DNA of 64,000 bases. Source: Candidatus Omnitrophota bacterium (GTDB lineage: Bacteria; Omnitrophota; Gorgyraeia; Zapsychrales; JANLHA01). Below are positions 1 to 56,399 of the stretch, piece after piece. Below the pieces are notes generated by a model. That model did no database searches and had not been told where the DNA came from. It worked only from the letters and a program-made list of their open reading frames with translations. The translations under genes were made by a program, and so were the position numbers. Position 1 is the first letter of the stretch. Each line of letters starts with the position of its first letter. The stretch covers positions 410,890 to 474,889 of the forward strand of contig JACKFJ010000001.1 in assembly GCA_020632535.1 (NCBI GenBank), in the 5' to 3' direction.

Positions 1-74
1 TCGATCTTGTCACGAGGAAAGCATTAAAACCACTTATTAAAAAGGAAATTCTTAAAGAAACGATATTTTTATGA
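1..74 (+). CDS. 3' end of MntA-like nucleotidyltransferase antitoxin (partial, runs off window)
   Basis: The frame is open from the window edge (...DLVTRKALKPLIKKEILKETIFL*). Its TGA stop overlaps the ATG of the downstream HepT gene (ATGA at 71-74), the usual MntA-HepT arrangement. Confidence 0.4.
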   Translation, partial: DLVTRKALKPLIKKEILKETIFL

Positions 75-403
75 GCAGAAGAAGCGAAGCTTTATATATC
101 AAAGATATTGCGGATGCTATTGCGCACATTGAGCAATATACAAAAGGCATTTCGTTTACGAAGTTTTCTAAAACCCCAATGATTATTGATGCCGTTGTTA
201 GGAATTTTGAGATTATTGGTGAAGCTGCCAAGAATTTATCGTCGAAGACTAAAGCGTCAGTGCCTGAAATTCCGTGGGAAGATATAACGGGGATGCGTAA
301 TAAAATAATCCATGAGTATTTTGGGGTCGACCTTGAGATCATTTGGAAAACGATACGTGAATCGTTACCAGTTTTTAAGAAGGCAATTGCTAAACTTAAG
401 TAA
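71..403 (+). CDS. hepT: HepT (DUF86) toxin of a type VII toxin-antitoxin pair
   Basis: 110 aa with the RX4HXY motif (GMRNKIIHEYF). Size and the coupling to the upstream short ORF are typical of DUF86. Confidence 0.85.
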   Translation: MSRRSEALYIKDIADAIAHIEQYTKGISFTKFSKTPMIIDAVVRNFEIIGEAAKNLSSKTKASVPEIPWEDITGMRNKIIHEYFGVDLEIIWKTIRESLPVFKKAIAKLK

Positions 404-643
404 TATGTTTCATTCGCCGCATCAATGCCAATCTTCGTGTCCACAATATCGAAAAGCCTGAAGATATTGACACGCTTACGCTCTAAATTTTCCGTCGGAA
501 AAAATCAAATATGCCCTTGACGATACCGCTTGTTTGTAGGTATACTTAGTTATTGTGATTTTTGTAAAGCTCGTAGATTCAAATATTTACCACGCGTGAC
601 CACTGGGTCGCAGCGTTCAACGGTGTAGCACTGTTAGATTCTT

Positions 644-1075
644 ATGATTAACTACAGTCAGTTGAAAATGATATTACCGCAAGCCTATCCATTTCTCTTG
701 ATCGATCATGTTGAAAGTTATCAACCCGGCGAGAGCCTCGTGGCCATCAAGAACATCACCGCAAACGAGTGGCCTTTTTCACAATCGCCTGACCGTTTAG
801 AACATTATCCCGAAACACTTTTAATCGAAGCCGCCGCACAGGCGGCTTTAGTGTTATATAGGATAAGTAAAAATTGTTCGATTATAAAAGAATCCAAATT
901 TGTTTTAGGTCAAATCAAAGCTGAATTTCATCAGCCCATTGCTGTTGGTCAGCAGTTAAGAATTAATGCCATTGCTAGCAAAATGCTTGATGATTTTGGT
1001 TATATGAATATGAATTTATTAGCTGATTTGTCTCAGGATGTTGCTGAAATTCAAATTTTTTATAAAGTTATTTGA
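644..1075 (+). CDS. FabZ/FabA-like hotdog-fold 3-hydroxyacyl-ACP dehydratase
   Basis: 143 aa. LPQAYPFLLIDHV...HYPETLLIEAAAQAA matches the FabZ catalytic His region and central helix. Confidence 0.8.
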   Translation: MINYSQLKMILPQAYPFLLIDHVESYQPGESLVAIKNITANEWPFSQSPDRLEHYPETLLIEAAAQAALVLYRISKNCSIIKESKFVLGQIKAEFHQPIAVGQQLRINAIASKMLDDFGYMNMNLLADLSQDVAEIQIFYKVI

Positions 1076-1082
1076 AGGGACT

Positions 1083-2327
1083 ATGCTTAATTCCCCCAAA
1101 AAGAAGCGTCGTGTTGTCGTCAGCGGTATAGGAGTTGTTTCCTCAATTGGAATCGGGTGGGAAGAGTTTTGGAAAAATCTTTTGGCGGGTAAGTCGGGGA
1201 TTGATAGAGTTAGAGCAATTGATACAACCAACTATGATTATCATCGAGCAGGTGAGGTCCGACGCTTTTTTCCTGCAGATTTCGTAAGCCGCCATAAAGT
1301 CTCCAAATTAGGACGAGCCTCACTTTTTGCTATCGCGGCAAGTAAAATGGCAATTAAGGATGCAAAACTTTCAATAAAGGAATTTCAGAAAATTGTTGGT
1401 GGAATATGTATAGGGACAACGATGGGGGAAGCCCAGTTGATTGAGTCAATGGCAAAGACTTTGGTGGATTCTGATGCATCAGATATTAAGAATTTAGAAG
1501 CTTTGTCGTATCCAGCAAACTCGATTTCTACAAATGTTGCAGCGGAACTTAAAATTCAAGGACAGAATATGTTGTTTGCGAATGCCTGTGCCGCTGGGAA
1601 TTATGCGGTAGGTTATGCCTTTGATATGATTCGATCCGGTAATACTAATATGATGATTGCGGGTGGAAGTGATGCCTTATCACGGATTGCGTTTACAGGT
1701 TTTGGGCGACTTTATGCTATGTCGCCGGATATATGTCAACCATTTGATCTAAATCGGAAGGGTATGATTTTAGGAGAAGGGGCTGGGATATTGTTGCTCG
1801 AAGAGTATAACTCTGCAGTCGAACGAGATGCTCTAATTTATGCCGAGATCAGGGGATATGGAATGTCTTGTGATGCCCAGCATATGACTAATCCTAATTT
1901 CCAAAGTGTTGCACGTGCAATTTTAAAATCCTTAGAGTCTGCAGACGTTAATCCACGAGATGTGCAGTATATTTCAGCACATGGCACAGGAACACCCGAA
2001 AATGATAAAGCGGAATGTGAGGCTCTTAATGAAGTTTTTGGTAAATTTACCCAAGAAATCCCGATAAGTTCAATTAAGTCTATGCTGGGGCATACAATGG
2101 GTGCGGCTTCGGCTTTAGAATCAATTGCCTGTTGTCTAGCTGTGAAGCATGGTGAAATTCCTCCAACTATAAATTTTCAAAATAGTGATCCTTTTTGCGA
2201 TATTGACTGTATCCCGAATAAAAGTCGAAAATCTAAAGTAGGCATCGCATTAAATAATTCGCAGGCTTTTGGGGGAAATAATGCAGCAATCGTGTTTCAG
2301 AAACATTTGAAAGAATTCTATAGATGA
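1083..2327 (+). CDS. beta-ketoacyl synthase (FabF-like KS)
   Basis: RVVVSGIGVVSSIG N-terminus, active-site Cys (ANACAAGNYA), and His motifs (SAHGTGTP, GHTMGAASA). The start is moved to the ATG at 1083, because the ORF-track start at 1038 overlaps the FabZ gene. Confidence 0.85.
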   Translation: MLNSPKKKRRVVVSGIGVVSSIGIGWEEFWKNLLAGKSGIDRVRAIDTTNYDYHRAGEVRRFFPADFVSRHKVSKLGRASLFAIAASKMAIKDAKLSIKEFQKIVGGICIGTTMGEAQLIESMAKTLVDSDASDIKNLEALSYPANSISTNVAAELKIQGQNMLFANACAAGNYAVGYAFDMIRSGNTNMMIAGGSDALSRIAFTGFGRLYAMSPDICQPFDLNRKGMILGEGAGILLLEEYNSAVERDALIYAEIRGYGMSCDAQHMTNPNFQSVARAILKSLESADVNPRDVQYISAHGTGTPENDKAECEALNEVFGKFTQEIPISSIKSMLGHTMGAASALESIACCLAVKHGEIPPTINFQNSDPFCDIDCIPNKSRKSKVGIALNNSQAFGGNNAAIVFQKHLKEFYR

Positions 2328-3607
2328 GAATAGTAATAACTGGATTAGGACCAATTACAGCTGCAGGAATCGCAAAAGATGATTTTTGGAGAGGACTTTG
2401 CACTTCAAAAACGAATTTAGTTAAAATTACTCAACCGTTTGGTGACACTTCGGTTTCGTTTTTTAAGCATGTTGTAGAAAATTTTAATATTGAAGATTTT
2501 GATATTTCAAAGGAATATTTGTCTGATTTAAAGGAATGGAAAGGGGGGAAAGTTGAAACAGATATGTATTACTTGCTTGCTGCGGCTAAATTAGCTTTGG
2601 AAGACAGTGGTTTAAAGTATGATATTGAAAAAAATAATATTGGCTTAGTCGTGACTCATGAAAATCCTGGTCTCGAAGACTATTTTAGTGAGCTGCTTTT
2701 ACACTCTTCAAATTATTATAAAAATAATAATCCTCTAGGCGATTATACCAGCTATATGTATGAAAAATTAGCAAAGAGTTCATTTGAGCTGCAAACTTTT
2801 ATGCCTCTTTATCATGTTGCAAAGATTTTGGGGCTTCACGGATACAGTTTGTTTATCAATAACGCATGTGCATCAGGTGCTTATGCTATGGAAGAAGCTG
2901 CACAAATAATAGAATCCGGAAAATCAAGCGTTGTTGTACTAGTGGCGGCCGATAACCCGCAGGTTTTTAAGTACCTTTGGTTTAAAAGGTTAAATTTATA
3001 TTCAGAAAATGGAATGATGATGCCTTTTTCTGATAATACTGATGGTTTTATTTTTGGGGATGGGGCTGCGGGTTTAGTTTTGGAGAGCTTAGATCATGCT
3101 CTGGCTAGAGGAGCAGAAATTTATGGCGAATATTTAGGTGGAGGATTCTATTCTGAGGGATGGAAAATTAGTTTCCCTAGTATTACGGAAGACTCTTATG
3201 GAGAGGCAATAAATAGCGCTTTTAAGAAGACACAGATAAATAAAAAAGAAATTGATGTAATTGTCCCCCATGGAATTTCAACACAAGTTACTGATCGTTA
3301 CGAAATGCGTAGTATATCTCGACAGTTTAAAGGAATGTTAGAACAGGTTAGTTTGTGTTCTTTAAAACCTTTGATTGGACATACTTTAGGAGCAAATACT
3401 GCTCTTGAAATACTAATAATTCTTTTGATGATAAAAAAAGAGTGCTTGCTCAGAGAGCAACGCATGAAAGTAAACGGTAATAGAGTTGATTTATCAATAC
3501 CAATTCCTTTTGTACACAAGAAGATAGCCTTTGTTCTTAAGACGACTGCTGCTTTTGCAGGATATAGGTCAGCAATTTTACTAAAAAGGTTTAATTTCAA
3601 TGATTAA
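2324..3607 (+). CDS. second, divergent beta-ketoacyl synthase (KS partner subunit)
   Basis: RIVITGLGPITAAG, Cys retained (NNACASGAYA), HGIST and GHTLGANTA. ATGA overlap with the upstream KS gene. Confidence 0.75.
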   Translation: MRIVITGLGPITAAGIAKDDFWRGLCTSKTNLVKITQPFGDTSVSFFKHVVENFNIEDFDISKEYLSDLKEWKGGKVETDMYYLLAAAKLALEDSGLKYDIEKNNIGLVVTHENPGLEDYFSELLLHSSNYYKNNNPLGDYTSYMYEKLAKSSFELQTFMPLYHVAKILGLHGYSLFINNACASGAYAMEEAAQIIESGKSSVVVLVAADNPQVFKYLWFKRLNLYSENGMMMPFSDNTDGFIFGDGAAGLVLESLDHALARGAEIYGEYLGGGFYSEGWKISFPSITEDSYGEAINSAFKKTQINKKEIDVIVPHGISTQVTDRYEMRSISRQFKGMLEQVSLCSLKPLIGHTLGANTALEILIILLMIKKECLLREQRMKVNGNRVDLSIPIPFVHKKIAFVLKTTAAFAGYRSAILLKRFNFND

Positions 3608-5765
3608 TTTATTTTCTGTAGCTGGAGTAATTCTTTTTGCTTGCTGTATAGTTCTCATTTTATTTGCGTGGTCAGCACGGCGATCCTCCATAATTTCAAC
3701 ATGGATATTGTTTAATGCCGGTGTTGCACTTTGGGGGTTAGCGGCCTTCATCATCGGTTCAACATCAAATGTGGTGATTTCGAGTATTTGGTGGCGGATC
3801 GCCCATTTAGGAATTATTTTTATTCCCGTATTTCTTGTGCATAATATTGTATTAATTTGTGATTTTAAAAAGAGAGAAATCTTGTTAAAACTGATCTACG
3901 GACAAGCAATTTTCTTTTTGTTTACTTTATTTACACCTTTTTTCCTAGGGCCGCTTAAGTCTTTTAAAGGATTTTTTTATTTAACACCGAAAATTCTTTA
4001 TTTCCCTTTCTTTTTTATTTGGATTTCTCTTGTTGCATTTAGCTTAGTTATTCTCTTTCAAAAAACTCAAACATCTCAAGGTCTTAAAGGCAATCAGGTC
4101 CGGTATTTATTTTGGGCTCTACTTTTAGGCTTTACCGGAGGAATAACAAATTTCTTCCCAGTTTTTAATATAAATGTTTATCCCTTTGGTAATTTGTTCA
4201 TTTCGCTATATTGTTTGACAGTAACATATGCAATTTTTAAGTACAGATTGCTGGATATAAGTTTATTAATTACACGTACTACCATTTTCTTTATTGTTTA
4301 TGCTTTTGTTCTTGGAATTCCATTTTTTATGGCTTTTGGATTACGTGGAAAATTGGTAGAATTATTTGGGTATGAGTGGTGGTTGGTACCTTTAGCAACA
4401 TCAACGGTTCTTGCTACTACTGGGCCTTTTATATATGTTTACTTCCAGAATCGGGCAGAGGATAGACTTTTACAAGAACAGCGCCGCTATCAAGCAACTC
4501 TTCGCCAAGCTTCTGCCGGTATGGGAAAGATTAAGGACTTAAAACGGTTGGTCACTTTGATTGTTCATATTATGACTCGCACCGTTCGGGTTGAGTATAG
4601 TATGGTTTTTTTAAATGATATTCATGCGAAGAAATTTCGTCTCGGTGCTTATCGGAGTCGTCAAGTCCGCATGAAGTTTCGTAGTGATATTGATCATGAG
4701 ACGGCTTTAGTGCGAGTTCTTCAGGAAACCCAAAGTCCAATTGTTTACGATGAGATTAAACAGCGTACGCAAGATTTTGGTGATCTCAAGCTTGCGCGTC
4801 TTGAAGCGGAATTAAAAGCTATTGATGCGGCACTTGTAATCCCTAGCTTTATTGACGAAAAACTTGTTGCTATTCTTGTTATGGGTGCGAAAGTTTCTGG
4901 AAAAATTTATAGCTCTGATGATTTGTCCGTCTTTTCAATTTTGGCGAATCAATCCGCTCTTGCAATCGAAAACGCGCAGTTTTATGATGAAATGAAAAGC
5001 ACGCATGTTCAATTGCTCAAAGCCGAAAAGATGGCCACAATTGGGACATTGGCCGACGGACTTTCGCATCAGATCAACAATCGCTTGCATGCGATGGGTT
5101 TTATTGCCGGGGATGCGTTAGATACTTTAAAGTTGGGGCATAATCTCCCTATGTCGCTTGAGGTTAAAGAAATGATCTTAGATCTTGAGCACGCCTTAAA
5201 CCGCATTGAGTCTAATGTTCAGCAGGGTGGTGAAATTGTTCAAGGTCTACTTAAGTACACGCGCAAAGATGATGGCTCGATACAAGATGTCGCGCTTGAT
5301 AAATTAATCGAAGCTGCGCTCGAGATGACGCAGTTTAAAATCAAACCCGGTGAGATGTCCATTAATCATGAGTACCCAAGTGATCTTCCCAAGATTCGCG
5401 GCAATTTTACGCAACTGCAGGAAGTGTTTTTTAATTTGATTGATAATGCGTATGATGCCATGATGCAACGAAAAGCCGAACTTAAGGAAGCCAATTACAC
5501 GCCGACGATTAAAATTATTGCAAGCGGCAGTATCAATGGGCATCTTAATGTTTTGGTTGAAGACAACGGAATGGGTATTCAGGAGCAGGATAAGGAAAAG
5601 ATTTTTACCCCGTTTTTTACGACCAAGCTCTCGAGCAAAAAGGGAACTGGTTTGGGATTGTATGTTATTCAACGTTTGATTGAAGAGAATCATAGTGGTA
5701 CAGTTGTTTATGAGTCAAAATATCAACAAGGAACAAAAGTCCACCTAACGTTACCCGCAGCCTAA
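3600..5765 (+). CDS. sensor histidine kinase with N-terminal multi-TM (7TM-type) sensor, GAF, HisKA and HATPase domains
   Basis: About 270 aa of hydrophobic helices, then a GAF-like region, an H-box (LADGLSHQINNRL), an N-box (NLIDNAYDA) and G-boxes (DNGMGI, GTGLGL). The start overlaps the KS2 stop by 8 nt. Confidence 0.9.
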   Translation: MINLFSVAGVILFACCIVLILFAWSARRSSIISTWILFNAGVALWGLAAFIIGSTSNVVISSIWWRIAHLGIIFIPVFLVHNIVLICDFKKREILLKLIYGQAIFFLFTLFTPFFLGPLKSFKGFFYLTPKILYFPFFFIWISLVAFSLVILFQKTQTSQGLKGNQVRYLFWALLLGFTGGITNFFPVFNINVYPFGNLFISLYCLTVTYAIFKYRLLDISLLITRTTIFFIVYAFVLGIPFFMAFGLRGKLVELFGYEWWLVPLATSTVLATTGPFIYVYFQNRAEDRLLQEQRRYQATLRQASAGMGKIKDLKRLVTLIVHIMTRTVRVEYSMVFLNDIHAKKFRLGAYRSRQVRMKFRSDIDHETALVRVLQETQSPIVYDEIKQRTQDFGDLKLARLEAELKAIDAALVIPSFIDEKLVAILVMGAKVSGKIYSSDDLSVFSILANQSALAIENAQFYDEMKSTHVQLLKAEKMATIGTLADGLSHQINNRLHAMGFIAGDALDTLKLGHNLPMSLEVKEMILDLEHALNRIESNVQQGGEIVQGLLKYTRKDDGSIQDVALDKLIEAALEMTQFKIKPGEMSINHEYPSDLPKIRGNFTQLQEVFFNLIDNAYDAMMQRKAELKEANYTPTIKIIASGSINGHLNVLVEDNGMGIQEQDKEKIFTPFFTTKLSSKKGTGLGLYVIQRLIEENHSGTVVYESKYQQGTKVHLTLPAA

Positions 5766-5773
5766 AGGATAAT

Positions 5774-6178
5774 ATGATTGCAAAATTAGAATCTTTAGAA
5801 AGGGAATTAGATATGCCTAAACTACTTATTGTTGACGACGAGATCGATATTCGGGAGTTTGCCAAAAGTTATTTTCGCAAACGTCACATCGAAGTTTATA
5901 CCGCCAGCGGCGGGGTTGAGGCGCTCGAAATCATTGCCCAAGAAAAACCTGACTTAGTGCTCCTCGACGTGCGAATGGAAGAAATGAATGGAGTCGACGT
6001 CCTTAAAAAACTTCGCGAATCCGGCAATAATACCAAAGTTGTTATGGTCACAGGCGTCAAGGAAGAGTCAACGATACAAGAAGCTGAGCGCTTGGGCGTC
6101 ACTGGCTTTATTCATAAACCGCTTATTCTTGACGAGCTCGAAAAAATTGTTCTTAAAGAACTAAAGAGTAATAGTTGA
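5774..6178 (+). CDS. single-domain response regulator (REC)
   Basis: LLIVDDE...LVLLDVRMEEMNG...VVMVTG...KP are the CheY-like receiver motifs. An alternative start is the ATG at 5813. Confidence 0.85.
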   Translation: MIAKLESLERELDMPKLLIVDDEIDIREFAKSYFRKRHIEVYTASGGVEALEIIAQEKPDLVLLDVRMEEMNGVDVLKKLRESGNNTKVVMVTGVKEESTIQEAERLGVTGFIHKPLILDELEKIVLKELKSNS

Positions 6179-6182
6179 TATG

Positions 6183-6209
6183 GATCCCCGCTAAGAGATT
6201 GCGGGGACG
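6183..6209. repeat. half copy of the family-2 repeat hairpin (GATCCCCG-N-CGGGGA)
   Basis: gatccccgctaagagattgcggggacg resembles the second hairpin of the elements at 11807-11880 and 36912-36984. Confidence 0.5.
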
Positions 6210-6220
6210 ACAATGATTAT

Positions 6221-7405
6221 ATGACGACCAAAATTGACTATAAAAAAGAGCTTGAGGCCGCCAGCCGTGGCATGATCATGATTCATGATCCTGAGCTGCT
6301 TATTAAGCTTATCGTGCGCATGATTGTTGGCAAAGTGCAGATTAAGCACGCTGGTATGATTGTTTATGACGCAGATCGAGATTGCTTTGTGCTCAATATT
6401 TCAAAAGGTGAGACAGGTTTTAAAATTCCCGCCGGTTTTGCGCGTTTCGACAACAATCATCCTATCATCGCGCTTTTTAACAAAAAAGAATATCGCACGC
6501 TTGTTCTTAACCGCAATGCGATTGTCACGCAAGATATTAATAAGCTCATTTGGCAAGAAAGTGTGATGCGCGAAGGCAGCGGCAAGAAGGAATTGCTTTA
6601 TAAAGTTGCTGACCAGATGCATATGATCGGCGCGGTTGCGTGTGTTCCGGCATATTATAGTGACAAGTTGCAGGCGGTGCTGTTGCTTGGAGCCCGCAAT
6701 GATGGGGACAAGTTTGATCAGCAGGAATTGGATTTTTTTGCCGCTTTGGCGTCGGACGCGGCCATGGCAATACGCAATGCTCAACTTTTTATTGAGGCAA
6801 AGAGAGAAGCCGAAAAGACTCGCGATTTATTCTTTCGTACGACGCTCGTGTTGGCGTCGGCAATCGAAATTAAGGACAAGTACACGCACGGTCACACGGA
6901 GCGCGTTACCAATTATGCTGTGATGATAGCGCAGCGTATGGTCGAAAATGGCAGTGCCAATTTTGATCAAAAGTTTTTAGAAAATGTGCACATTTCGAGT
7001 CTTTTGCATGATATCGGCAAGATCGGCGTTCCCGAAGTCATTTTAAACAAGCCCGGTCAACTTACGCACGAAGAATTTGAAATCATGAAACGTCACACGA
7101 CAAACGGCGTCGAAATTTTAAAGCCATTGTTAGAGTTAAAGGACGCCTTAGATGGCGTCAAGTCTCACCATGAGCGCTACGATGGGGGCGGGTATCCGGA
7201 AGGGCTAAAAGGTGAACAAATTCCTATGGTGGCCGCAATCATTGCCGTGGCTGACACATATGACGCGATGATTACGGATCGTCCGTATCGCAAAGGTATG
7301 AGCAAAGAAGAAGCCGTGGCCGAAATTAAAAGCAATATTTTAAAGCAGTTTCATTATCAACCCGCCCAAGCTTTAATCGAACTCTACGAATTAGGAAAAG
7401 TATAG
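6221..7405 (+). CDS. GAF domain / HD-GYP c-di-GMP phosphodiesterase
   Basis: HGHTERV, LLHDIGKIGVP and HHERYDGGGYP motifs, preceded by a GAF-like N-terminal half. Confidence 0.85.
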   Translation: MTTKIDYKKELEAASRGMIMIHDPELLIKLIVRMIVGKVQIKHAGMIVYDADRDCFVLNISKGETGFKIPAGFARFDNNHPIIALFNKKEYRTLVLNRNAIVTQDINKLIWQESVMREGSGKKELLYKVADQMHMIGAVACVPAYYSDKLQAVLLLGARNDGDKFDQQELDFFAALASDAAMAIRNAQLFIEAKREAEKTRDLFFRTTLVLASAIEIKDKYTHGHTERVTNYAVMIAQRMVENGSANFDQKFLENVHISSLLHDIGKIGVPEVILNKPGQLTHEEFEIMKRHTTNGVEILKPLLELKDALDGVKSHHERYDGGGYPEGLKGEQIPMVAAIIAVADTYDAMITDRPYRKGMSKEEAVAEIKSNILKQFHYQPAQALIELYELGKV

Positions 7406-7409
7406 TTTG

Positions 7410-9071
7410 TCATTTTGTCCTGATTGGTAAAATCAGCGTAAACGTTGTTCCGTGTCCGTTCTCACTAACAACTGCAATTTCCCCGCCGTGGTCTTTAATA
7501 ATGCCATGAGTTATCGGTAGCCCCAATCCAGTTCCCGCGTCCTTGGTACTAAAGAACGGATCAAAGATATGGGTGAGATCATTCTTGCTAATGCCGGATC
7601 CTGTGTCGGTAATCGAAATGCAAATAGTCCCATTGCGAGGAGCCTCTTGAGGCGACGCTGGAATCTGAGTTTGATTCGTGCCTTCGGCACTCGCAATGGT
7701 ACTAATAGTTAGCGTTCCCCCCAACTTCATCGCGTCAATGGCATTAAGAAAGATATTAAGCAGAGCTTGGCGCATTTTATTATGGTCAAGTAAGATTAGT
7801 ATGTCGCATTCGGGCGCAAGTTGGGTCTTGACTATGATCTTTTGTTGCAAAAATTTGCTGGATAAAAAGTCAAGTGTATCCGAAATAAGTTTGTTAGGAT
7901 TTGTTTCCTTAAGTTGTATGGGGGAGGGTCGCGCAAATTCAAGGAGCTCATTAACCAGTTCGTCAATGCGCTTGACTTCTCCGCCGACGATGCGCGAAAA
8001 TTTTTTCAAAAATTCTTTGTCGTCGAGTTTATTGGGTAAATATTCACTAAATGTCTTGAGGGCAGTCAATGGGTTTTTGATTTCATGGGCCATTCCGCTG
8101 GCTAAGATCGCGACACTTTTGAGTTTCTCAGTTTCAAAAACTTCCGCGCGCAACAACTCATTTTCCTGTGATATTTCTTCCGTGGTTTTCTTGAAAATGA
8201 ATTTGTCCACAATGCGTTGAATATAGCTGTGGAGTGGAAAGAATGCGATCCCAAGGACGAAAGCTGCGATGATACTAATGCTAATGGACTTATATCCCCA
8301 AAAACCTTGGATAAACTTTTCAGATACAAGAATTAATCCAAAATATAGCAGTGCTGTTAAGAGGATTAGAACCGAATAGGTAAAACTTTTTTTAATAACT
8401 ACACTTATGTCAAGAAATTGGTACTTGAAAATCGCGTAAGAAATTGCAAGGCAAGGCGTAATTGCAATAAAATTGCCCCAAGGATAAATATTCCATCCAT
8501 ATGCTGGAAAGAAGTTTGTTATGCTCCCAGCAAATCCTAACAATGTGAGATTGAAAATGAGTCTTAATTCGGTTTTTTGTTGAGGATATAATCTTTTGAA
8601 TGCGCTTAAAAATATGAGATGCCCAATGGTAATTACAAAAACCCAGAATATAAAAGAAACTGTAAATATTGGTGTCGCAATGTGATAATAAAAGGAGTTA
8701 AACATGACTCGAAAGTTAGCCATCATTGCTTCTTGAAATATTGCAACGGCAAAGAATATTGCTTGTGCATAAACTAATAAAATGTCCCATTTCTGTTTTC
8801 GCTGAATCATTTCGTAGCTGGTGTGATAGAAAAATACAGGTATAAATAAAACCGCAGCGTACGCAAATTTCCAAATTATCTTTATGAAAATAATATTTGT
8901 TATTGTGGCAATGAGGACTGCAGATATTCCCCACATTGCAATAGCAAATAAGTAACAACCGTAGATTCTTGAAATTTTAGTTTTGCCTTTTATAAAAATA
9001 AAAAGTGATAGTGGGAAATAAAGCGCAAACATTATGAGCCCGGATATCGCAAATGGATTTAGTGGATTCAT
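7410..9071 (-). CDS. sensor histidine kinase, 7TM-type N-terminus (paralog 1)
   Basis: Multi-TM N-terminus, H-box (SGMAHEIKNPLTAL), N-box (NIFLNAIDAM), and G-boxes (DTGSGI, GTGLGL). Carries the in-frame repeat insertion. Confidence 0.9.
   Translation of the reverse strand: MNPLNPFAISGLIMFALYFPLSLFIFIKGKTKISRIYGCYLFAIAMWGISAVLIATITNIIFIKIIWKFAYAAVLFIPVFFYHTSYEMIQRKQKWDILLVYAQAIFFAVAIFQEAMMANFRVMFNSFYYHIATPIFTVSFIFWVFVITIGHLIFLSAFKRLYPQQKTELRLIFNLTLLGFAGSITNFFPAYGWNIYPWGNFIAITPCLAISYAIFKYQFLDISVVIKKSFTYSVLILLTALLYFGLILVSEKFIQGFWGYKSISISIIAAFVLGIAFFPLHSYIQRIVDKFIFKKTTEEISQENELLRAEVFETEKLKSVAILASGMAHEIKNPLTALKTFSEYLPNKLDDKEFLKKFSRIVGGEVKRIDELVNELLEFARPSPIQLKETNPNKLISDTLDFLSSKFLQQKIIVKTQLAPECDILILLDHNKMRQALLNIFLNAIDAMKLGGTLTISTIASAEGTNQTQIPASPQEAPRNGTICISITDTGSGISKNDLTHIFDPFFSTKDAGTGLGLPITHGIIKDHGGEIAVVSENGHGTTFTLILPIRTK
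7630..7699. repeat. family-1 palindromic element embedded in frame in a kinase gene
   Basis: Terminal inverted repeats ccattgcgag (7630-7639) and ctcgcaatgg (7690-7699). The left arm cattgcgaggagc is identical to intergenic copies. It encodes ...IPASPQEAPRNG... between the N-box and G1-box. Confidence 0.75.
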
Positions 9072-10798
9072 TGATTTGTCACCGTAGTAGAGGGAAGAGT
9101 GATTGAGAATGTCGTTCCCTTTTCTTTAATACTCGCCACTGTAATCTTTCCATCATGATCCTCAATAATTCCCTTAACAATCGCAAGTCCTAGGCCAGTT
9201 CCGGTGTCCTTGGTGCTGTAGAATGGTTCAAAGATTTTGTTGAGATTTTCTTTGGATATGCCAAGGCCAGTGTCGGTGAAGGTGATGACAACAGTCCCAT
9301 TGCGAGGAGCCTCTTGAGGCGACGCGGCAATCTGTATAGATTGCGAACGGAGTGAGTCCCTGTGGGACTTCATCACTGCGTTCTTCGCAATGGCAGTGAT
9401 TATAAGCTTCCCGCCATTAGGCATGGCCTCGAGAGCATTGAGAATCAAATTGATGAAAACTTGCAACAGTTTATTGGAGTCAGCTTTGATGGTCGGTAAA
9501 TTGTCCAAAAATTCTGTGACGACTTTAATATTTCCTTTGCGTAGCTGATTAGTGGTTAAGTTAAGCGCGTGTTCGAGCGTGTTCTTGATATTCGTGTCTT
9601 TTAGAGTCAGGGGAGAGGGTTTGGCAAATTCGAGCAGTTCGTTTAAAATGTTTTCGATTCGGGTAATTTCAGTGCTGGCAAGCGATTCAAATTTAGCAAC
9701 AAATTCTGGATCATTCCTCTTTTTAGGGAAATATTCAACAAAAGTCTTAAGTGCTGTTAATGGATTACGTATTTCATGGGCGATACTACTTGCTAAAGTT
9801 GCGATGGTTTTTAGTTTTTCATGCTGGACTGCTTCTTTTTTGAATTGAGTGTTTTCTTCGACAATTTGAGGAATTGTTCGGTGGAAAAAACGTTTTTCAA
9901 ACCATTCTTGAATAATATTTCGGAACGGGACAAATGTAAACGCGATGAAAATTGTGGAAATCAAAGAAGGCATAATTCCTGTATAACCAATTACTCGTTG
10001 AAGACTTCGTTCTAAAACAAAGACAAATGCTAGGTAGATGACGGTGATTAATGTTAAGAGTGTTGAATAGATAATGCTTTGTTGAATGATGACTTGTATG
10101 TCCATTAATCGATGTCTTACGATCGCATAAGCGCATATCAAAATAAATAATGTGGCGGGTAAATAACCTATTGGATAAATGGGTATACCATAATTGGCAA
10201 TGAAATCAATACACGCAATATCAAATATTGCCAATCCGAATATCATGTATTTCATTTGATTTCGTAAGGTAATTTTATTGATATGTACTTTTAAGCCCTT
10301 TATCAAAATTATTAGACTTCCCGGTAAAGTAATAAGTGCATAAATTAAGAAATGTGGGTGATAAGTGCCTGCTTTGGGGTAATACCCCCAAGAGTAATGA
10401 TATAATCCTGCAAAAATGTAGTTGGTGTTGATAACTAAATAGCAGAAAAGTGCACTAAGGAGATTTCCTATAAAAATTAATTTTTCAAGTCTTTTGATTC
10501 CGGCAAGGGTGATTGCATAAGCGAGCATATTCATTCCAATAAAACAAACTCCGCAATATCCCAGTCGATAGAGCCATTGGATGAGCTTTGGGTCCGCAAA
10601 AAGCGATAGCGTATAATTTATGGAATAAAGGAAAAGCCATACAAAGGTCGCAAGGCAGAGGTAAAAGAATCGCTGATTAAGAAGGGATGATGGGTTTTTT
10701 ACTAAGACGAAAATCCCTGTCACCAAAATTAAAAGTGACGATAAGAACGGCGGGATAGAGTAAGGGTTGATTTGAAATGCAACGTCATGCAGCATCAA
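9068..10798 (-). CDS. sensor histidine kinase, 7TM-type N-terminus (paralog 2)
   Basis: Same architecture as 7410-9071 (SSIAHEIRNPLTAL, NLILNALEAM, DTGLGI, GTGLGL). 4-nt overlap with the downstream paralog. Confidence 0.9.
   Translation of the reverse strand: MMLHDVAFQINPYSIPPFLSSLLILVTGIFVLVKNPSSLLNQRFFYLCLATFVWLFLYSINYTLSLFADPKLIQWLYRLGYCGVCFIGMNMLAYAITLAGIKRLEKLIFIGNLLSALFCYLVINTNYIFAGLYHYSWGYYPKAGTYHPHFLIYALITLPGSLIILIKGLKVHINKITLRNQMKYMIFGLAIFDIACIDFIANYGIPIYPIGYLPATLFILICAYAIVRHRLMDIQVIIQQSIIYSTLLTLITVIYLAFVFVLERSLQRVIGYTGIMPSLISTIFIAFTFVPFRNIIQEWFEKRFFHRTIPQIVEENTQFKKEAVQHEKLKTIATLASSIAHEIRNPLTALKTFVEYFPKKRNDPEFVAKFESLASTEITRIENILNELLEFAKPSPLTLKDTNIKNTLEHALNLTTNQLRKGNIKVVTEFLDNLPTIKADSNKLLQVFINLILNALEAMPNGGKLIITAIAKNAVMKSHRDSLRSQSIQIAASPQEAPRNGTVVITFTDTGLGISKENLNKIFEPFYSTKDTGTGLGLAIVKGIIEDHDGKITVASIKEKGTTFSITLPSTTVTNQ
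9297..9393. repeat. family-1 palindromic element embedded in frame in a kinase gene
   Basis: ccattgcgaggagcctcttgaggcgacgcggcaatct-gtat-agattgc...ttcgcaatgg. It shares cattgcgaggagc, gcaatct/agattgc and tcgcaatgg with the intergenic consensus. It encodes ...RSQSIQIAASPQEAPRNG.... Confidence 0.75.
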
Positions 10799-11163
10799 CT
10801 ATTCTTCACCCCCAAATTCTTTCTCACGGTCGCGAGAATTTCATCGGAAGCAAAGGGCTTGACGATAAAGCCGGAGGCTCCGATACGCACCGCTTCGGCG
10901 GCGGCATCGACACTTTTGTAACCTGTTACGATAATCACATTTATTTTTGGAAAATTTTCCTTAATCTGTCGCAGGACTTCAATCCCCGAAGTTTTTGGCA
11001 TTTTGATATCCAAAAGAACGAGCTGGACATCCGGTGCGCCTTTGAGCGTTTCGACGCACAGCGTGCCGTCGCTGATTACAATCAATTCAAAAAAATCACT
11101 CAAAATAAGTTTGAGCGATTCACGGATTCCTTCTTCATCATCACAAATCATAATCTTTGCCAT
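10795..11163 (-). CDS. single-domain response regulator (REC)
   Basis: KIMICDDEEG...VLLDIKMPKTSG...VIIVTG...KP receiver motifs. Confidence 0.85.
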   Translation of the reverse strand: MAKIMICDDEEGIRESLKLILSDFFELIVISDGTLCVETLKGAPDVQLVLLDIKMPKTSGIEVLRQIKENFPKINVIIVTGYKSVDAAAEAVRIGASGFIVKPFASDEILATVRKNLGVKNS

Positions 11164-11187: not shown

Positions 11188-11760
11188 TTACAGCATAACC
11201 GGCGTTATAACGGAAATCACCTTAACTGCTTTTTTACCCTTGTTCTCAAAGTGGTGCTCGACTGACGCGTCAAAGTAAAGGGAGCTGTTGGTCTTAAGCG
11301 CATAGTGTTCCTTCCCTATATACGCGGTGACTTCGCCTTCTAGAATAAAGATAAATCTTTCGGATCCGCTGGGGTTTTGTTCGGTGTTGGTTTTGCCATC
11401 TGGCTCGATTCGTAAAATAATTGGGAGCATCTTTTTCTTTAAAAGCTGGCTGGTCAAAATTTCATAAGAGGCGCGGTCATTGTATGTAAAAGATTCGACA
11501 GATGTCTGCGGTTTGTTGACGTGGGGGGGCTCAGCTTTTTGCTCATCATTTTTGAGATTGTCATACAGTTCGACTAAGTCGACACTCAGTGCTTTGGCAA
11601 TGTTTAAATGCGACTCAAGGGTGCCGGTCATTTTCATGTTTTCAATACGGCTGAGTGTCGCAATTTGGACGCCGCTTTTTTGCGACAAATCCGTCAGGGA
11701 CATTTTGTTCTTTTCACGTAATTCTTTGAGACGTTTTCCGATTAGCATGGGGTAGTCCAA
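11188..11760 (-). CDS. XRE-family HTH plus C-terminal cupin transcriptional regulator
   Basis: N-terminal IGKRLKELREKNKMSLTDLSQKSGVQIATLSRIE is an XRE-type HTH. The C-terminal ~90 aa is cupin-like (ERFIFILEGEVT...H.FEN). Confidence 0.8.
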   Translation of the reverse strand: MDYPMLIGKRLKELREKNKMSLTDLSQKSGVQIATLSRIENMKMTGTLESHLNIAKALSVDLVELYDNLKNDEQKAEPPHVNKPQTSVESFTYNDRASYEILTSQLLKKKMLPIILRIEPDGKTNTEQNPSGSERFIFILEGEVTAYIGKEHYALKTNSSLYFDASVEHHFENKGKKAVKVISVITPVML

Positions 11761-11880: not shown

Positions 11881-12073
11881 TAAATATTATTTCAGTTAAA
11901 CACTTTAAATGACAAATTAAATATACCATCCATTGACGAAATGTCAATACTTTGTGTATTAATTAAAAATATATTTTAAAATATTTTCCATAACATACAC
12001 ACACTGTGTACAAGTTGTTTACTTTCAATAGCTTAAATCCATACATAAATTTGATGATTCAACAAATATTATG

Positions 12074-12102
12074 TTGACAAATAATCAAAACATTGGTATA
12101 TT
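12074..12102 (+). promoter_or_regulatory. candidate sigma70-type promoter
   Basis: TTGACA, 17 nt, TATATT, about 38 nt upstream of the ATG at 12140. Confidence 0.35.
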
Positions 12103-12139
12103 TGTTGCATTGGTAATCAAACACTACTGACAGGAGACG

Positions 12140-12418
12140 ATGATGATGCAATCTGGCGATGACAAAGCTCCCCGCGTAAATTCTCAAAGTGATACCTCGG
12201 TTTTTCTCAAAGACAACGGTGTGGCGATTTACACAATCCTAGCAATGCTCACACGGATTAAGAACACGGTTGGTTTAGAGGCGATGCTCGAATACATGGA
12301 TCATTACCAAAAATTGATCGAGCAGCACAATCCTCATTTTCGTGACGCGGTCAAGGAGGCGTTAGGGATCAAAAATGTTGAGAAAATGTATCGGGATATT
12401 AACCAAAATGGAAAATAA
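12140..12418 (+). CDS. hypothetical small protein
   Basis: 92-aa ORF with an AGGAGA RBS. It is coupled (11-nt overlap) to the downstream gene. No motif recognised. Confidence 0.5.
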   Translation: MMMQSGDDKAPRVNSQSDTSVFLKDNGVAIYTILAMLTRIKNTVGLEAMLEYMDHYQKLIEQHNPHFRDAVKEALGIKNVEKMYRDINQNGK

Positions 12419-13979
12419 AAGACTGCTATATTTGCTAATCTGCTTATCAATTTTTGTGAATACGGCGCATGCGAGTCAATCGCCGTGGGTCAAACGTTCG
12501 GCTGGGATTCTTGAAGCCCGCATCAATTGTGTTTATTCTGCATCAAATCACGAAACATTTGTTTTAGCCGGTACGGACAAAGCTGTTTATCGCGCCGATA
12601 ATTCGCAAAGCTCCTTTTATCCTGTTTTACAAAATTACGGAAAATCTCAATCGATCAATCAAATTGTTAGCAGTCGACGTGTACCTACATCTATATATAG
12701 CGCTACAGAAGCAGGTGTTTTTGAAAGTACCGATCAAGGCCGCAATTGGAAAAGCATTTATTCCCCAGCGAGCACCTTGGCGCGCAAAGCGCTTTGTGTA
12801 TTGGCTGATGAGCAGGCGATTTATATTGGGACGGCTGATGGATTGTATGTTCGTCGCAATAATCAGGAACAGTGGCAAAAGGATTTGAGCGAAGTTGGCC
12901 GCAAAATCGTTTTTCATTTAGCTGATGATGACACTTATGTTTACGCGGCGACCGACGATGAAGTTTATCGGATACAGAAGGTAGACCAGCAAATCAGCAA
13001 GATTTATAGTTTTGCAAATAGTGTGAGTGATGAAGAGGAAGATATTGATCAAGAAGATGAATCTGTCCGTCAGAGCTTGGTTAAAGATTTAATTTATTCT
13101 AAGAAATTATATGTCGTTGCCGAACACGACATTTTGACAAGTCAAGATCATGGGGAAACATGGGAATCACTGCCGACAGACGGTTTGCCTGTCAATTTTG
13201 TGCGCAAGCTTTTTGTGGATCAATCACAAAATATTTATGCCGCGACCGAAAAGGGGATTTTTACCTATGAGGATGGACGTTGGCAAAATAATGTGCAAGG
13301 TCTGACAAGTCAATTTACAAATGATGTCACGGCGGACGCAAAAGGCAATGTATTGGTCGCCACCAGCAATGGAATTTTTGCGAAGTCGAAGATAGATGAT
13401 ACGGCGGTTGCGGTTGTGAGTTATGAGGAAGTTCTTGATCGATTCACAATCGAGCCGACTATCAAAGATGTTCAGCGCATGGCGATCGAATACGCCAACG
13501 TCAATCCCAGACAAATCAATAGCTGGCACAATCAGTCGCGGGCGAAAGCTCTTTTTCCAACACTATCTGTTGGTTTGAGCCGCGCGGATACGGATTTATA
13601 TCATTGGGATACGGGAGCTAATCCGGATGTCTTGACACGTGGGCGTGATTATTTGGATTGGAGTACGTCAATTTCATGGGATTTTGGTGATTTTGTTTGG
13701 AGCAGTGATCACACGTCGATTGATTCACGGTCAAAACTGATGAGTGAATTGCGGCAGGATATTTTGGATCAAGTTACGCGATTATATTTTGAGCGTCGTC
13801 GTATTCAGGTCGAACTTGCGATTGAGAAGGAAAGTGAGCCAAATTCGATTTTGGAAAAGCGGATGCGTGTTGAAGAATTGACCGCTTTGCTTGATGGTTT
13901 GACGGGCGGTAAATTTTCCGAACTCAGGGGAGAACGGAATAGTAAAGCAATCCGAATAAAAGGAGAAGGAAATGGTTAA
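12408..13979 (+). CDS. secreted BNR/Asp-box beta-propeller-like protein
   Basis: Signal peptide (MENKRLLYLLICLSIFVNTAHA) and Asp-box-like motifs (STDQGRNWKS, SQDHGETWESL). The start is placed at the internal ATG at 12408. Confidence 0.6.
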   Translation: MENKRLLYLLICLSIFVNTAHASQSPWVKRSAGILEARINCVYSASNHETFVLAGTDKAVYRADNSQSSFYPVLQNYGKSQSINQIVSSRRVPTSIYSATEAGVFESTDQGRNWKSIYSPASTLARKALCVLADEQAIYIGTADGLYVRRNNQEQWQKDLSEVGRKIVFHLADDDTYVYAATDDEVYRIQKVDQQISKIYSFANSVSDEEEDIDQEDESVRQSLVKDLIYSKKLYVVAEHDILTSQDHGETWESLPTDGLPVNFVRKLFVDQSQNIYAATEKGIFTYEDGRWQNNVQGLTSQFTNDVTADAKGNVLVATSNGIFAKSKIDDTAVAVVSYEEVLDRFTIEPTIKDVQRMAIEYANVNPRQINSWHNQSRAKALFPTLSVGLSRADTDLYHWDTGANPDVLTRGRDYLDWSTSISWDFGDFVWSSDHTSIDSRSKLMSELRQDILDQVTRLYFERRRIQVELAIEKESEPNSILEKRMRVEELTALLDGLTGGKFSELRGERNSKAIRIKGEGNG

Positions 13980-14226
13980 GAAGTTATTGGTAGCAGGCTT
14001 ATGCGCCGCGATATTGACGATTTCGTCCGTGGCCATGGCGGGAGATGTTGTCGTTACAAAACGGGGGAAGAGATATCATGCGGCAACATGCGCGTTGATT
14101 TTAAGCAAGCAGACAACCGGCATGGATGAACAGCAAGCAATTGCAAAAGGCCTCAAGCCGTGCGGTAAGTGCTTGAGTGATAAGGAAGACAAAGACAATA
14201 AGAGTAATAAAAAGGAAAAGAAATAG
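13972..14226 (+). CDS. small secreted Cys-motif protein (Ada-type metal-binding-like, Lys-rich tail)
   Basis: Signal peptide, then KRYHAATCALI...KPCGKC, as in short YH..C...PC..C proteins. AAAGGAGAAGGA RBS. Confidence 0.55.
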   Translation: MVKKLLVAGLCAAILTISSVAMAGDVVVTKRGKRYHAATCALILSKQTTGMDEQQAIAKGLKPCGKCLSDKEDKDNKSNKKEKK

Positions 14227-14416
14227 TTCATAAGCGTAAGGGGGGCGGGCTTAGTTCCAAAGGCATATCTCCGCGTCGTTAGGGGTAGCGGCAAAGGAGA
14301 GCCTTCAACTAGGGGGAAATAGGGGATGGAAATTAAGCCCGCTCTCTAAAAATTTTAGAATGTACTAATCGGGGATCCATTTACGCAACACCTTCGGAAG
14401 GGAGGAATGATGAAAA

Positions 14417-14725
14417 TTGAAAATAACAATCATGTTGTTTCTATTGACTCTGACTCCTGTTCTGTTGATTGAGGCTCCTGTGTATGCCGGTTCAAGCTTC
14501 GCCACGCTTTCGATGACAACGAACGTTATTGCGATTAAGAATGCCGAGGAAATCAACCGTATTATTGAGCAAGTTAACGCGGCTCGAGCCGCATCACAGC
14601 GGGCTTTAAGTAATGAGGAAATTGCAAAAATAAAAGAACAAGCAGAACAAGCGCAGGCTAATCAGGCCATGATGGTCGTCGACGCCGGAGCCACCATCTT
14701 CTGCGGCAGTTACGTTATTGAGTAG
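14417..14725 (+). CDS. hypothetical secreted protein
   Basis: TTG start in the ORF track (an ATG at 14432 is also possible). Signal-peptide-like N-terminus, then an Ala/Gln-rich helical region. Confidence 0.45.
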   Translation: MKITIMLFLLTLTPVLLIEAPVYAGSSFATLSMTTNVIAIKNAEEINRIIEQVNAARAASQRALSNEEIAKIKEQAEQAQANQAMMVVDAGATIFCGSYVIE

Positions 14726-14726
14726 T

Positions 14727-14929
14727 CCATTGCGAGGAACGCAGTTTTGTACCCATTGCGAGGAACGAAGTAAATTTCTCATTGCGAGGAGCGAAGCGAC
14801 GAAGCAATCTATATCAGATTGCCGCGTCGGCCTTTGGCCTCCTCGCAATGATGGTGTCCATTGCGAGGAGTGAAGCGACGAAGCAATCTATATCAGATTG
14901 CCGCGTCGGCCTTTGGCCTCCTCGCAAGG
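14727..14929. repeat. family-1 palindromic repeat array (2 left-arm stubs plus 2 full 71-bp elements)
   Basis: Stubs lie at 14727 and 14752. Full elements at 14780-14850 and 14859-14929 read cattgcgaggag[c/t]gaagcgacgaagcaatct-atatc-agattgccgcgtcggcctttggcctcctcgcaa[tg/gg]. Confidence 0.9.
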
Positions 14930-23910: not shown

Positions 23911-23954
23911 AACCCGCAGTTGTCCTCAAAAGATGATTGCGGGTTATTTTTTAT
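23911..23954 (+). terminator. Rho-independent terminator
   Basis: Stem aacccgca (23911-23918) pairs with tgcgggtt (23938-23945), followed by attttttattt. Confidence 0.6.
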
Positions 23955-23970
23955 TTGTACGACGGAGATG

Positions 23971-24006
23971 GAGATTGCCACGTCGCCCTTCGGGCTCCTC
24001 GCAATG
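23971..24006. repeat. isolated family-1 right half at the orphan cassette junction
   Basis: gagattgccacgtcgcccttcgggctcctcgcaatg sits between a 20-nt Rhs stub (23950-23970) and the start of Rhs homology at 24018. Confidence 0.8.
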
Positions 24007-24017
24007 ATCACTTGCGT

Positions 24018-27736: not shown

Positions 27737-27778
27737 CTTTGTAGGTAGCTGTGTTAATGGGGAGCAGTATACTTTTTT

Positions 27779-37092: not shown

Positions 37093-37225
37093 ATTTAAAA
37101 GTCGCCTACTTTTTTAATTTGCATTTTTGTTAAAGTTCGGCTAATATGTTTGTGTTTTCCCAATAAATACCCCTTACAAATATAAAAATGTGTTTATACC
37201 ATCCATTAACGTGAGGGGTCATTTT

Positions 37226-56309: not shown

Positions 56310-56399
56310 AATGAACTTGTAAACCGTGTTTAAAAAGGGTATATTATTTGACTCTTTCTTTGAATTTTGGAATTTGTTGTGAATCGTAAGGGGAGTGAT

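Follow-up and report, generated by a model that had tools for sequence, protein, structure and literature searches.

Coupling between fatty-acid-derived chemistry and the turnover of cyclic di-GMP (c-di-GMP) is known from the Xanthomonas rpf system, in which the diffusible signal factor (DSF), made by RpfF, a crotonase-fold synthase with dehydratase and thioesterase functions, and by the FadD-type enzyme RpfB, is sensed by the hybrid kinase RpfC and read out by the fused REC-HD-GYP protein RpfG. Polytopic sensors provide a second set of precedents. DesK of Bacillus senses membrane thickness. In Pseudomonas, membrane perturbation feeds into c-di-GMP through SiaA (PMC12834913). Here we analysed a 64,000-nucleotide (nt) stretch of Candidatus Omnitrophota bacterium (assembly GCA_020632535.1, contig JACKFJ010000001.1, positions 410,890 to 474,889; hereafter the window, whose own coordinates are used throughout), in which six closely packed plus-strand genes at 644-7405 encode a FabZ-like protein (DH*), two ketosynthases (KS1 and KS2), a histidine kinase with a seven-transmembrane (7TM) region and a GAF domain (HK-A), a single-domain response regulator (REC) and a GAF-HD-GYP protein. 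We read the arrangement as a lipid-coupled two-component/HD-GYP circuit built from unrelated parts; its neighbourhood is well supported and its mechanism is a proposal.

The closest described enzymes belong to Cluster I of anammox bacteria (KustE3603-3608), which has been termed unique to ladderane producers and comprises the acyl carrier protein (ACP) amxACP, amxFabZ, amxFabFmut, amxFabF2, a phytoene-dehydrogenase homologue and a B12 radical S-adenosylmethionine (SAM) enzyme (bioRxiv 10.64898/2026.05.19.726425). The same preprint describes the Scalindua amxFabFmut, whose catalytic triad is mutated, as the chain-length-factor (CLF)-like partner with which amxFabF2 forms a heterodimer, and reports that amxFabZ prefers C6-C8 chains. 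"Ladderane" biosynthetic gene clusters without known function have also been called in Omnitrophota (bioRxiv 10.1101/2022.12.20.521206).

Open reading frames (ORFs) of the window were annotated by Pfam and NCBIfam profile searches. DH* (644-1075) was followed by KS1 (1083-2327) and KS2 (2324-3607), each with N- and C-terminal ketoacyl-synt domains and an intact Cys-His-Lys-His (CHKH) tetrad. HK-A (3600-5765) matched Pfam HisKA_7TM at 39.7 bits (cut-off 28.6), GAF and HATPase_c; REC (5774-6178) matched Response_reg at 101.9 bits; and the last gene (6221-7405), a predicted c-di-GMP phosphodiesterase, matched HD_5 at 122.8 bits, HD and GAF and carries the motifs HDIGK and HHERYDGGGYP. The junctions are tight: a 7-nt gap between DH* and KS1 (1076-1082), with the KS1 start at 1083 called likewise in a related locus (L001), a 4-nt ATGA overlap between KS1 and KS2 (2324-2327), an 8-nt overlap between KS2 and HK-A (3600-3607), an 8-nt gap between HK-A and REC and a 42-nt gap between REC and the HD-GYP gene. 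A consensus scan predicted no terminator-like site inside 644-7405, and the junction between KS2 and HK-A, at which an initial annotation of the window had considered a transcriptional break, is one of the overlaps. That annotation had listed the same six ORFs with the same coordinates, REC and the GAF-HD-GYP gene on the strand of the enzymes, the first three junctions and two intact ketosynthases, all of which the ORF list and the profile searches bear out. A promoter-like site lies upstream on the plus strand (517-546, TTGACG-18-TATACT, 10 of 12 consensus matches); it was found by consensus only, and sites of this kind are no more frequent here than expected from shuffled sequence. Taken jointly with the full mechanism proposed below, the view that 644-7405 is one operon coupling an ACP-dependent acyl-chain branch to a two-component/c-di-GMP output may well be correct, at a likelihood that we place slightly short of even.

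KS2 relatives were sought in one representative genome per species, the window's own genome not being among these; the scan yielded 485, with hundreds at 40-50% identity. The best 80 loci were fetched (about 35 from Omnitrophota, 14 from Nitrospirota or Thermodesulfovibrionia and 14 from metagenome-assembled genomes (MAGs) labelled Planctomycetia/Planctomycetales), and their six-frame ORFs were labelled with the proteins of the window and its relatives; loci are referred to by L numbers where they need to be told apart. The dominant gene order was KR-KS0-ACP-DH-KS1-[CrtI-like oxidase]-KS2-[CrtI-like oxidase]-7TM-GAF kinase-REC-GAF-HD-GYP, where KR is a ketoreductase and KS0 a third ketosynthase-family gene; in Nitrospirota, a fused REC-HD-GYP gene stands in place of the last two. 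The 7TM-GAF kinase was the next gene in 52 of the 72 KS2 loci with at least 1 kb of downstream sequence, and the exceptions were mostly contig ends or distant KS2 relatives (below 312 bits) in Actinobacteria and Acidobacteria. The kinase gene followed the preceding enzyme gene at a median distance of 3.5 nt (30 nt or less in 43/52); that neighbour was KS2 31 times, a CrtI-like oxidase 20 times and KS1 once. Where enough sequence followed the kinase (n = 34), REC was present in 28 loci and HD-GYP in 26, nine of the latter as REC-HD-GYP fusions. In five loci (L021, L074, L037, L045 and L054), 7TM kinase genes are interleaved between KS1 and KS2. A search of metagenomes started from the kinase recovered the same neighbourhoods; its patterns fell in the kinase core, and about 15 of its 80 loci were true orthologues. 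Conservation of the FabZ-KS-KS-kinase-REC-HD-GYP order, which the initial annotation had set as the test of its reading, was thus strongly confirmed. A linkage of this depth and tightness is too much for chance, and a functional connection between the enzymes, the 7TM kinases and HD-GYP is well supported, because the synteny is conserved, the ketosynthase genes are not housekeeping genes, the genes overlap and no internal terminator is predicted. We found no published description of a HisKA_7TM/ketosynthase/HD-GYP linkage in a full-text literature search.

The fuller clusters (type A) are the ones that resemble anammox Cluster I most. KS0, present in 29 of 39 related loci and not in the 64-kb window, has a mutated triad in all relatives, and its best match is chain C of PDB entry 9s5h (357 bits), in which Thr occupies the Cys position and Asn and Glu the His positions. 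We equate 9s5h with amxFabF2/amxFabFmut by sequence agreement, since the preprint prints no PDB codes. The oxidases of the relatives belong to the CrtI or carotenoid-isomerase family. No gene of the relatives received a B12 radical SAM label; they do encode ACP, a DH that keeps its His, and CrtI-like proteins. Judged by sequence, the type-A core is homologous to Cluster I except for the B12 radical SAM enzyme, which it lacks, and type-A clusters are probably the kind that antiSMASH labels "ladderane" in Omnitrophota. The window shares with Cluster I a KS1 that resembles amxFabF2 and a DH* that resembles amxFabZ, to which the fuller relatives add the amxFabFmut-like KS0, ACP and CrtI-like oxidases. 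It differs in having no CLF, ACP, oxidase or B12 radical SAM gene (none of the last kind adjoins the operon), in the loss of the DH catalytic His, and in an additional KS2 that is of the active type by motif; the 7TM kinase, REC and HD-GYP genes are likewise not part of the anammox cluster as described. The KS/CLF-ACP-FabZ-oxidase core is common in Omnitrophota and Nitrospirota (L002, L004, L006 and other type-A loci). For ladderane research, this means that a core regarded as a hallmark of ladderane producers is widespread beyond the anammox group, where it stands beside signalling genes, and therefore cannot by itself specify ladderanes. A second resemblance is to highly reducing type II polyketide synthases and aryl-polyene systems (Iga11-Iga12, ApeO/ApeC and ApeI/ApeP): KS1 scores higher against Iga11 than against any FabF, the DH proteins of the relatives match the ApeI-like and ApeP-like Pfam families, and the relatives' clusters have no enoyl reductase. 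The window differs from these systems too, in that it has no CLF, both of its ketosynthases keeping Cys, and no aryl starter or adenylation enzyme.

KS1 matched chain B of 9s5h at 455 bits (E 2e-135), the ishigamide ketosynthase Iga11 at 349 bits and canonical FabF structures at no more than 301 bits. Against the fabF equivalog model TIGR03150 (cut-off 493.75), KS1 scored 410 bits and KS2 188 bits, and KS1 passed only the broader subfamily model PRK07314 (404, cut-off 387). By comparison, a true FabF that coexists with the module in L103, a locus which also has true fabG and acpP, scored 642 bits on the equivalog. On the score, the PDB affinities and this coexistence, we rejected KS1 as an ordinary housekeeping FabF, and the ketosynthase genes do not look like those of housekeeping enzymes, an outcome that agrees with the initial annotation. 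The catalytic sets are intact in 72/72 KS1 and 84/84 KS2 (CHKH) sequences. A KS1-KS2 pairing as KS/CLF was also rejected, Cys being kept and the triads intact in both. In a tree, the type-B KS1 clade, to which the window's gene belongs, is nested inside type-A KS1. KS1 is predicted to be an active elongating synthase of the amxFabF2 type in the fabF slot, and it could nonetheless be the main elongating ketosynthase of this genome. KS2, whose best PDB match reaches only 138 bits, appears from its residues to be an extra, very divergent synthase that is always catalytically intact by motif.

The first gene had been annotated as a FabZ-like dehydratase. The FabA/FabZ hot-dog fold holds (Pfam FabA, 34.8 bits), and the best PDB match is anammox amxFabZ; the dehydratase label has to be corrected, as the catalytic His of the GHFP motif is replaced by Ser. 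Scores against FabZ models are 66-67 bits, below cut-offs of 113 and 155. Among 117 homologues of the DH* subfamily, the catalytic-His position is hypervariable and occupied by another residue in 116, and the Glu is kept in all 117, together with the motifs around it (KNIT.NEW, PETLLIEAAAQAAL). From these patterns, the DH* family would be conserved without being a standard dehydratase. Glu without His is compatible with a hot-dog thioesterase, as in 4HBT-type enzymes. The exact DH* protein is not in the protein collection that holds its neighbours KS2 and HK-A; the gene may be uncalled there or called differently.

The sensor HK-A has intact H, N, G1, F and G2 boxes, with invariant H490, N612/N616, DNGMG, FTPFFTTK and GTGLGL motifs. 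Residues 1-292 were modelled with AlphaFold2 on the basis of 15 aligned sequences (mean pLDDT 85.6, pTM 0.72); the model contains seven TM helices, an extracytoplasmic beta-hairpin (116-130) and further helices toward the GAF domain. Foldseek searches of the PDB with this model returned 7TM bundles of class C G-protein-coupled receptors (GPCRs; GABA-B, mGlu, CaSR and GPR156) at E values of 5e-4 to 1e-2 and TM-scores of 0.45-0.55 normalised to the HK-A query, so that the modelled GPCR likeness is one of fold level only. Within the TM region, W35, N39, W45, H81, Y100, Y169, N184, Y204 and a GGxTNF motif are invariant; such polar and aromatic residues would suit a pocket for a ligand better than a domain that serves only as an anchor, a fit that is not proof. 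A PDB sequence search with the GAF domain gave no informative match (best E 0.027). Two further kinases lie on the minus strand directly beyond the operon, HK-B (7410-9071; Pfam HisKA and HATPase_c) and HK-C (9068-10798; a second 7TM-HisKA-HATPase paralogue by Pfam). Their 7TM regions are 32% identical to that of HK-A over 228 residues and 27% over 205 residues, respectively, in line with the shared 7TM N-terminus that had been noted for both; GGxTNF recurs in HK-B as GSITNF and is degenerate in HK-C. A polyene chromophore for a rhodopsin-like 7TM kinase was considered and set aside: many of the MAG samples appear to be from groundwater or deep mines, which we took as dark, and the idea had no other support.

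At the output end, REC keeps DDE, the D at LLD, T and K; these motifs, like those of the HD-GYP protein and the kinase boxes, were read by eye, the kinase boxes also being invariant alignment columns. The GAF-HD-GYP protein is 41% identical in its catalytic domain to the fused REC-HD-GYP of a Nitrospirota locus (L004), and such fusions occupy the same position as the split window genes in nine related loci. The locus shares with rpf a fatty-acid-derived chemistry beside a membrane kinase, an output through HD-GYP and, in the Nitrospirota relatives, an RpfG-like fusion. It differs in several respects: among the operon proteins, Pfam and NCBIfam searches found no crotonase/enoyl-CoA hydratase (RpfF) or FadD (RpfB); HK-A consists of HisKA_7TM, GAF and the kinase core without the REC or HPt domain, unlike the hybrid kinase RpfC; REC and HD-GYP are separate in the window, the latter with a GAF domain; and the enzymes are ketosynthases, a hot-dog protein and CrtI-like proteins or reductases. 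The proposal of the initial annotation, an rpf-like circuit from unrelated enzymes, accordingly holds for its output end and for the enzyme-kinase-HD-GYP linkage; a released, diffusible product fares less well, there being no thioesterase or exporter at the operon. The likeness to DesK-DesR and SiaA lies in a polytopic membrane sensor tied to lipid unsaturation or membrane state and, for SiaA, in the tie to c-di-GMP. DesK differs in having five TM helices, a HisKA_3 domain, a NarL-type DNA-binding partner and a desaturase gene; here, a GPCR-like 7TM region with GAF is combined with an HD-GYP output, and the sensor gene is itself a member of the lipid operon. Elsewhere in the window lie further genes related to c-di-GMP, namely a second GAF-HD-GYP (49182-50630), two PilZ genes (52558-52929 and 56367-56870), a T2SSE-type ATPase (61545-62939) and another single-domain REC (34501-34962). 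PilZ genes also occur in L002. In L103, the fabG-acpP-fabF genes that follow the kinase and REC-HD-GYP lead on to genes (12006-14923) for GspF/PilC and for an ATPase of the MshE type whose N-terminus has a c-di-GMP-binding motif, and these proteins are possible effectors of the output.

We propose that the 7TM kinases respond to an acyl-ACP-derived lipid, or to the lipid state resulting from it, and that REC carries the signal on to HD-GYP, an account to which we give somewhat less than even weight. KS1, placed behind plsX-fabH-fabD, and KS2 would together draw off or lengthen acyl-ACP intermediates to build a specialised chain, with DH* acting as a binding, chain-handling or releasing partner and not as a dehydratase. 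The 7TM bundle of HK-A, and probably those of HK-B and HK-C as well, would detect the resulting lipid, or the membrane change it causes, within the bilayer. HK-A would then autophosphorylate on His490 and pass the phosphoryl group to REC, and phosphorylated REC would switch the GAF-HD-GYP protein, lowering c-di-GMP for PilZ- or MshE-type effectors. The gene content, the intact motifs, the close spacing of the genes, the synteny across two phyla, the enzymes' homology to anammox Cluster I, the lost DH His and the GPCR-like sensor fold are computed observations; the KS2 product or its consequence as cue, the direction of signalling from lipid to kinase, the proteins between which the phosphoryl group passes and the response of HD-GYP are what we infer from them.

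Several observations weigh against this proposal. The pathway is not reconstructable from the window alone, because the window has no ACP, KR, CLF or chain-release enzyme; a tblastn search of the 64 kb found no ACP, KR, third ketosynthase or CrtI-like gene. Earlier, ACP, KR, enoyl reductase (ER), acyltransferase (AT) and thioesterase had all been reported missing, which stands for ACP and KR; ER and thioesterase genes were not found in Pfam scans that covered most window ORFs only, and a trace of AT does exist in the fabD remnant described below. In the closest relative, L088 (identity to the window 89% for REC, 87.5% for the GAF domain of the HD-GYP protein and 78% for the kinase core), a thioester-reductase-domain protein occupies the KS2 slot before the kinase (7005-8096; NAD_binding_4 184 bits, TIGR01746 139 bits), so KS2 itself is dispensable for the module. 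Two loci with kinase orthologues (L095 and L097) have no ketosynthase gene within 7 kb and only acyl-ACP-reductase-like, radical SAM and SRPBCC genes, and the cue could thus be unrelated to lipids. A mirror-tree comparison of KS2 with the 7TM domain showed no specific co-evolution (r = 0.21, partial correlations near 0) and was uninformative. Finally, the operon REC shares less identity with the REC domain of the fusion proteins (30%) than with REC2 of the convergent unit (38%), so that a Rosetta-stone argument from the fusions is positional only. What stays constant is acyl-ACP or lipid chemistry beside kinase-REC-HD-GYP; the particular enzyme varies.

The genes upstream bear on a reading in which the enzymes make or modify the acyl chains of bulk or specialised membrane lipids, whether these are unsaturated or polyunsaturated, alcohols or ethers, or bound in glycolipids; the kinases would sense a physical property of the bilayer and no specific ligand, and c-di-GMP would couple the state of the envelope to surface behaviour. 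In the ten type-B loci, KR, KS0 and ACP are missing upstream of KS2, and in eight of them (L010, L037, L043, L045, L052, L064, L071 and L076) fabD, mostly with plsX and fabH, precedes DH*/KS1; in L076, PlsX, FabH and FabD were confirmed by NCBIfam. A contig encoding a kinase 55% identical to HK-A has the full order recG-rsmD-coaD-yceD-plsX-fabH-fabD-DH-KS1-KS2, and is syntenic with the window through an HTH-cupin gene, a 538-residue protein in the position of the window's 534-residue ORF, and the beginning of a giant ORF. The window itself retains the last 24 codons and stop of fabD (412-486, plus strand; 83% identity to residues 283-306 of L088 FabD by tblastn, E 6e-8; 90% nucleotide identity to the L088 fabD 3' end), located after a HepT-like ORF. 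From this remnant and the relatives' gene order, the window operon also follows fabD, with KS1 in the usual fabF slot, and is a reduced, type-B form of the fuller clusters. The first three genes are not the self-contained synthase trio of the initial annotation: DH* has no catalytic His, KS1 sits in the fabF slot of plsX-fabH-fabD, and only KS2, or its replacements, is the usual kinase neighbour. Genes of the window's subtype thus end a housekeeping operon, and in L103 the module stands between DH-KS1 and fabG-acpP-fabF. Downstream of HD-GYP, at least ten loci encode a diglucosyl-diacylglycerol-synthase-like glycosyltransferase (GT28) and an LpxL-like acyltransferase (L002 15200-17840, L097 12044-14692, L008, L034, L089, L090, L092, L093, L095 and L099, the last with GT28 only at a contig end); GT2 also follows in L002 and L097, the only loci checked for it, and all three are absent from the window. 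Every enzyme would work on ACP-bound chains, and SiaA (PMC12834913) and DesK are precedents. The output is however not transcriptional, Pfam finding no DNA-binding response regulator in the operon, so that no feedback onto the lipid genes is visible; the invariant polar and aromatic TM residues and the GPCR-like bundle are features more often associated with ligand binding than with the gauging of membrane thickness, and several paralogous sensors would be left unexplained. We regard this bilayer-sensing account as the strongest rival to our proposal, and as unlikely on the whole.

Somewhat less probable still is a diffusible signal of the DSF/Rpf kind, for quorum sensing or autocrine use, in which KS2 would make a short- or medium-chain beta-keto or unsaturated acyl-ACP, DH* would release it as a thioesterase, and the free lipid would partition into membranes, bind to 7TM kinases in the producing cell or its neighbours and through them drive REC and HD-GYP in the manner of RpfC and RpfG; in relatives, a thioester or acyl-ACP reductase would release an aldehyde or alcohol instead. 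The RpfG-type output, with fusions in the Nitrospirota relatives, and the three paralogous 7TM sensors at one locus agree with such a signal, and the turnover of the kinase-adjoining enzyme (KS2, CrtI-like, SAM-dependent methyltransferase, thioester reductase or acyl-ACP-reductase-like) resembles signal diversification. The reductases would free the chain from ACP. A family of acyl-ACP-reductase-like proteins, related to the cyanobacterial acyl-ACP reductase and the PigE N-terminus, recurs in type-A clusters and adjoins the kinase in L095, L097 and L103, which hints at chain release from ACP as aldehydes. Its members include L002 3684-4697, L097 3102-4199 and 4839-5834, and L103 1670-2968; the three in L002 and L097 score 69-144 bits on TIGR04058, below its cut-off, and the L103 member is linked by BLASTP and its PigE match only. 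This 432-residue L103 protein, at first taken as a homologue of the L088 thioester reductase, belongs to the acyl-ACP-reductase-like family instead. A SAM-dependent methyltransferase of about 386 residues stands between KS1 and KS2 in the type-B loci L037, L052 (7602-8765), L064 and L071, and also beside distant KS2 relatives in Micromonosporaceae. The Glu-only DH*, by analogy with 4HBT-type thioesterases, and the C6-C8 preference of amxFabZ would be compatible with release of such a chain. Against it stand the missing exporter and RpfF and RpfB homologues, a thioesterase role that is putative, the mirror-tree result and the many loci that run on into glycolipid and acyltransferase genes, as for a membrane constituent. 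Many Omnitrophota, moreover, are reported to be very small, host-associated cells, in which quorum sensing of the classical type would not be an obvious trait. The reductases that take the place of KS2, the variety of enzymes, the presence of more than one sensor and the Glu-only hot-dog protein thus point to release, and the plsX-fabH-fabD embedding, the downstream glycolipid and acyltransferase genes and the missing thioesterase and exporter point to the membrane, which fits equally well.

Mere co-transcription, with kinase-REC-HD-GYP riding on a strong or growth-coupled lipid operon and the 7TM regions sensing some other cue, or else with c-di-GMP or phosphorylated REC controlling the enzymes, would agree with the kinase orthologues lacking ketosynthase neighbours, the replaceable KS2 and the mirror-tree result, but is improbable, as the linkage outlasts rearrangement across two phyla with kinase genes interleaved among ketosynthase genes and neighbours that are always lipid-related, and simple hitch-hiking rarely lasts at that depth.

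If the proposed link is functional, it offers a first clue to the stimuli of the HisKA_7TM kinases, a large and uncharacterised family, and it defines a lipid-to-c-di-GMP circuit of parts unrelated to DSF in two phyla with almost no genetics; the operon, at about 6.8 kb, is small enough for practical expression and testing. A bolder and doubtful extension is that a widespread, unrecognised family of GPCR-like 7TM kinases serves as receptors for self-made acyl-ACP-derived lipids, with co-encoded ligand-making enzymes that have diversified between lineages (KS2, CrtI-like proteins, reductases, and DH* as releaser). This would amount to a non-homologous counterpart of DSF/Rpf controlling c-di-GMP in Omnitrophota and Nitrospirota, and the enzyme core attributed to anammox ladderane synthesis would have an older role related to signalling or lipid tailoring.

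The convergent unit beyond the operon, in which HK-B and HK-C are encoded, further contains REC2 (10795-11163, minus strand; Response_reg 88.9 bits), another single-domain response regulator, and is headed by an HTH_3-cupin regulator (11188-11760, minus strand; Pfam HTH_3 and Cupin_2), upstream of which the consensus scan placed a strong promoter-like site (minus strand, 11947-11920). A convergent kinase-REC pair was also present in L018, L036, L043, L064, L076 and the P0126 contig, and the kinases only in L088; for a convergent kinase in L045, the tblastn label spans the 7TM part only. The HTH-cupin family was found in 13 related loci and the P0126 contig. On the other side of the operon, the degenerate HepT-like toxin ORF (71-403, plus strand; NCBIfam HepT_toxin 43.8 bits, C-terminal part only) belongs to a toxin-antitoxin cassette whose insertion separates fabD from the operon; an exact-protein look-up with this ORF found nothing. 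At the corresponding site, L088 carries different cassettes of this kind, RHH/PIN and NTP_transf_2 (L088 1122-1993), and 29 nt of the fabD 3' end recur behind the PIN gene; together with 71-486 of the window, these cassettes look like a hot spot for toxin-antitoxin insertion with duplication of the fabD end. The 534-residue protein (12375-13979) has a weak BNR match, and its family occupies the same position after the HTH-cupin gene in seven related loci. Farther along, the window contains two giant ORFs of 2542 and 2301 residues, several RHS/YD-shell fragments with a radical SAM gene between, and an IS200-type transposase (15595-23223, 37190-44095, 23937-29626, 26429-27736 and 30230-30823).

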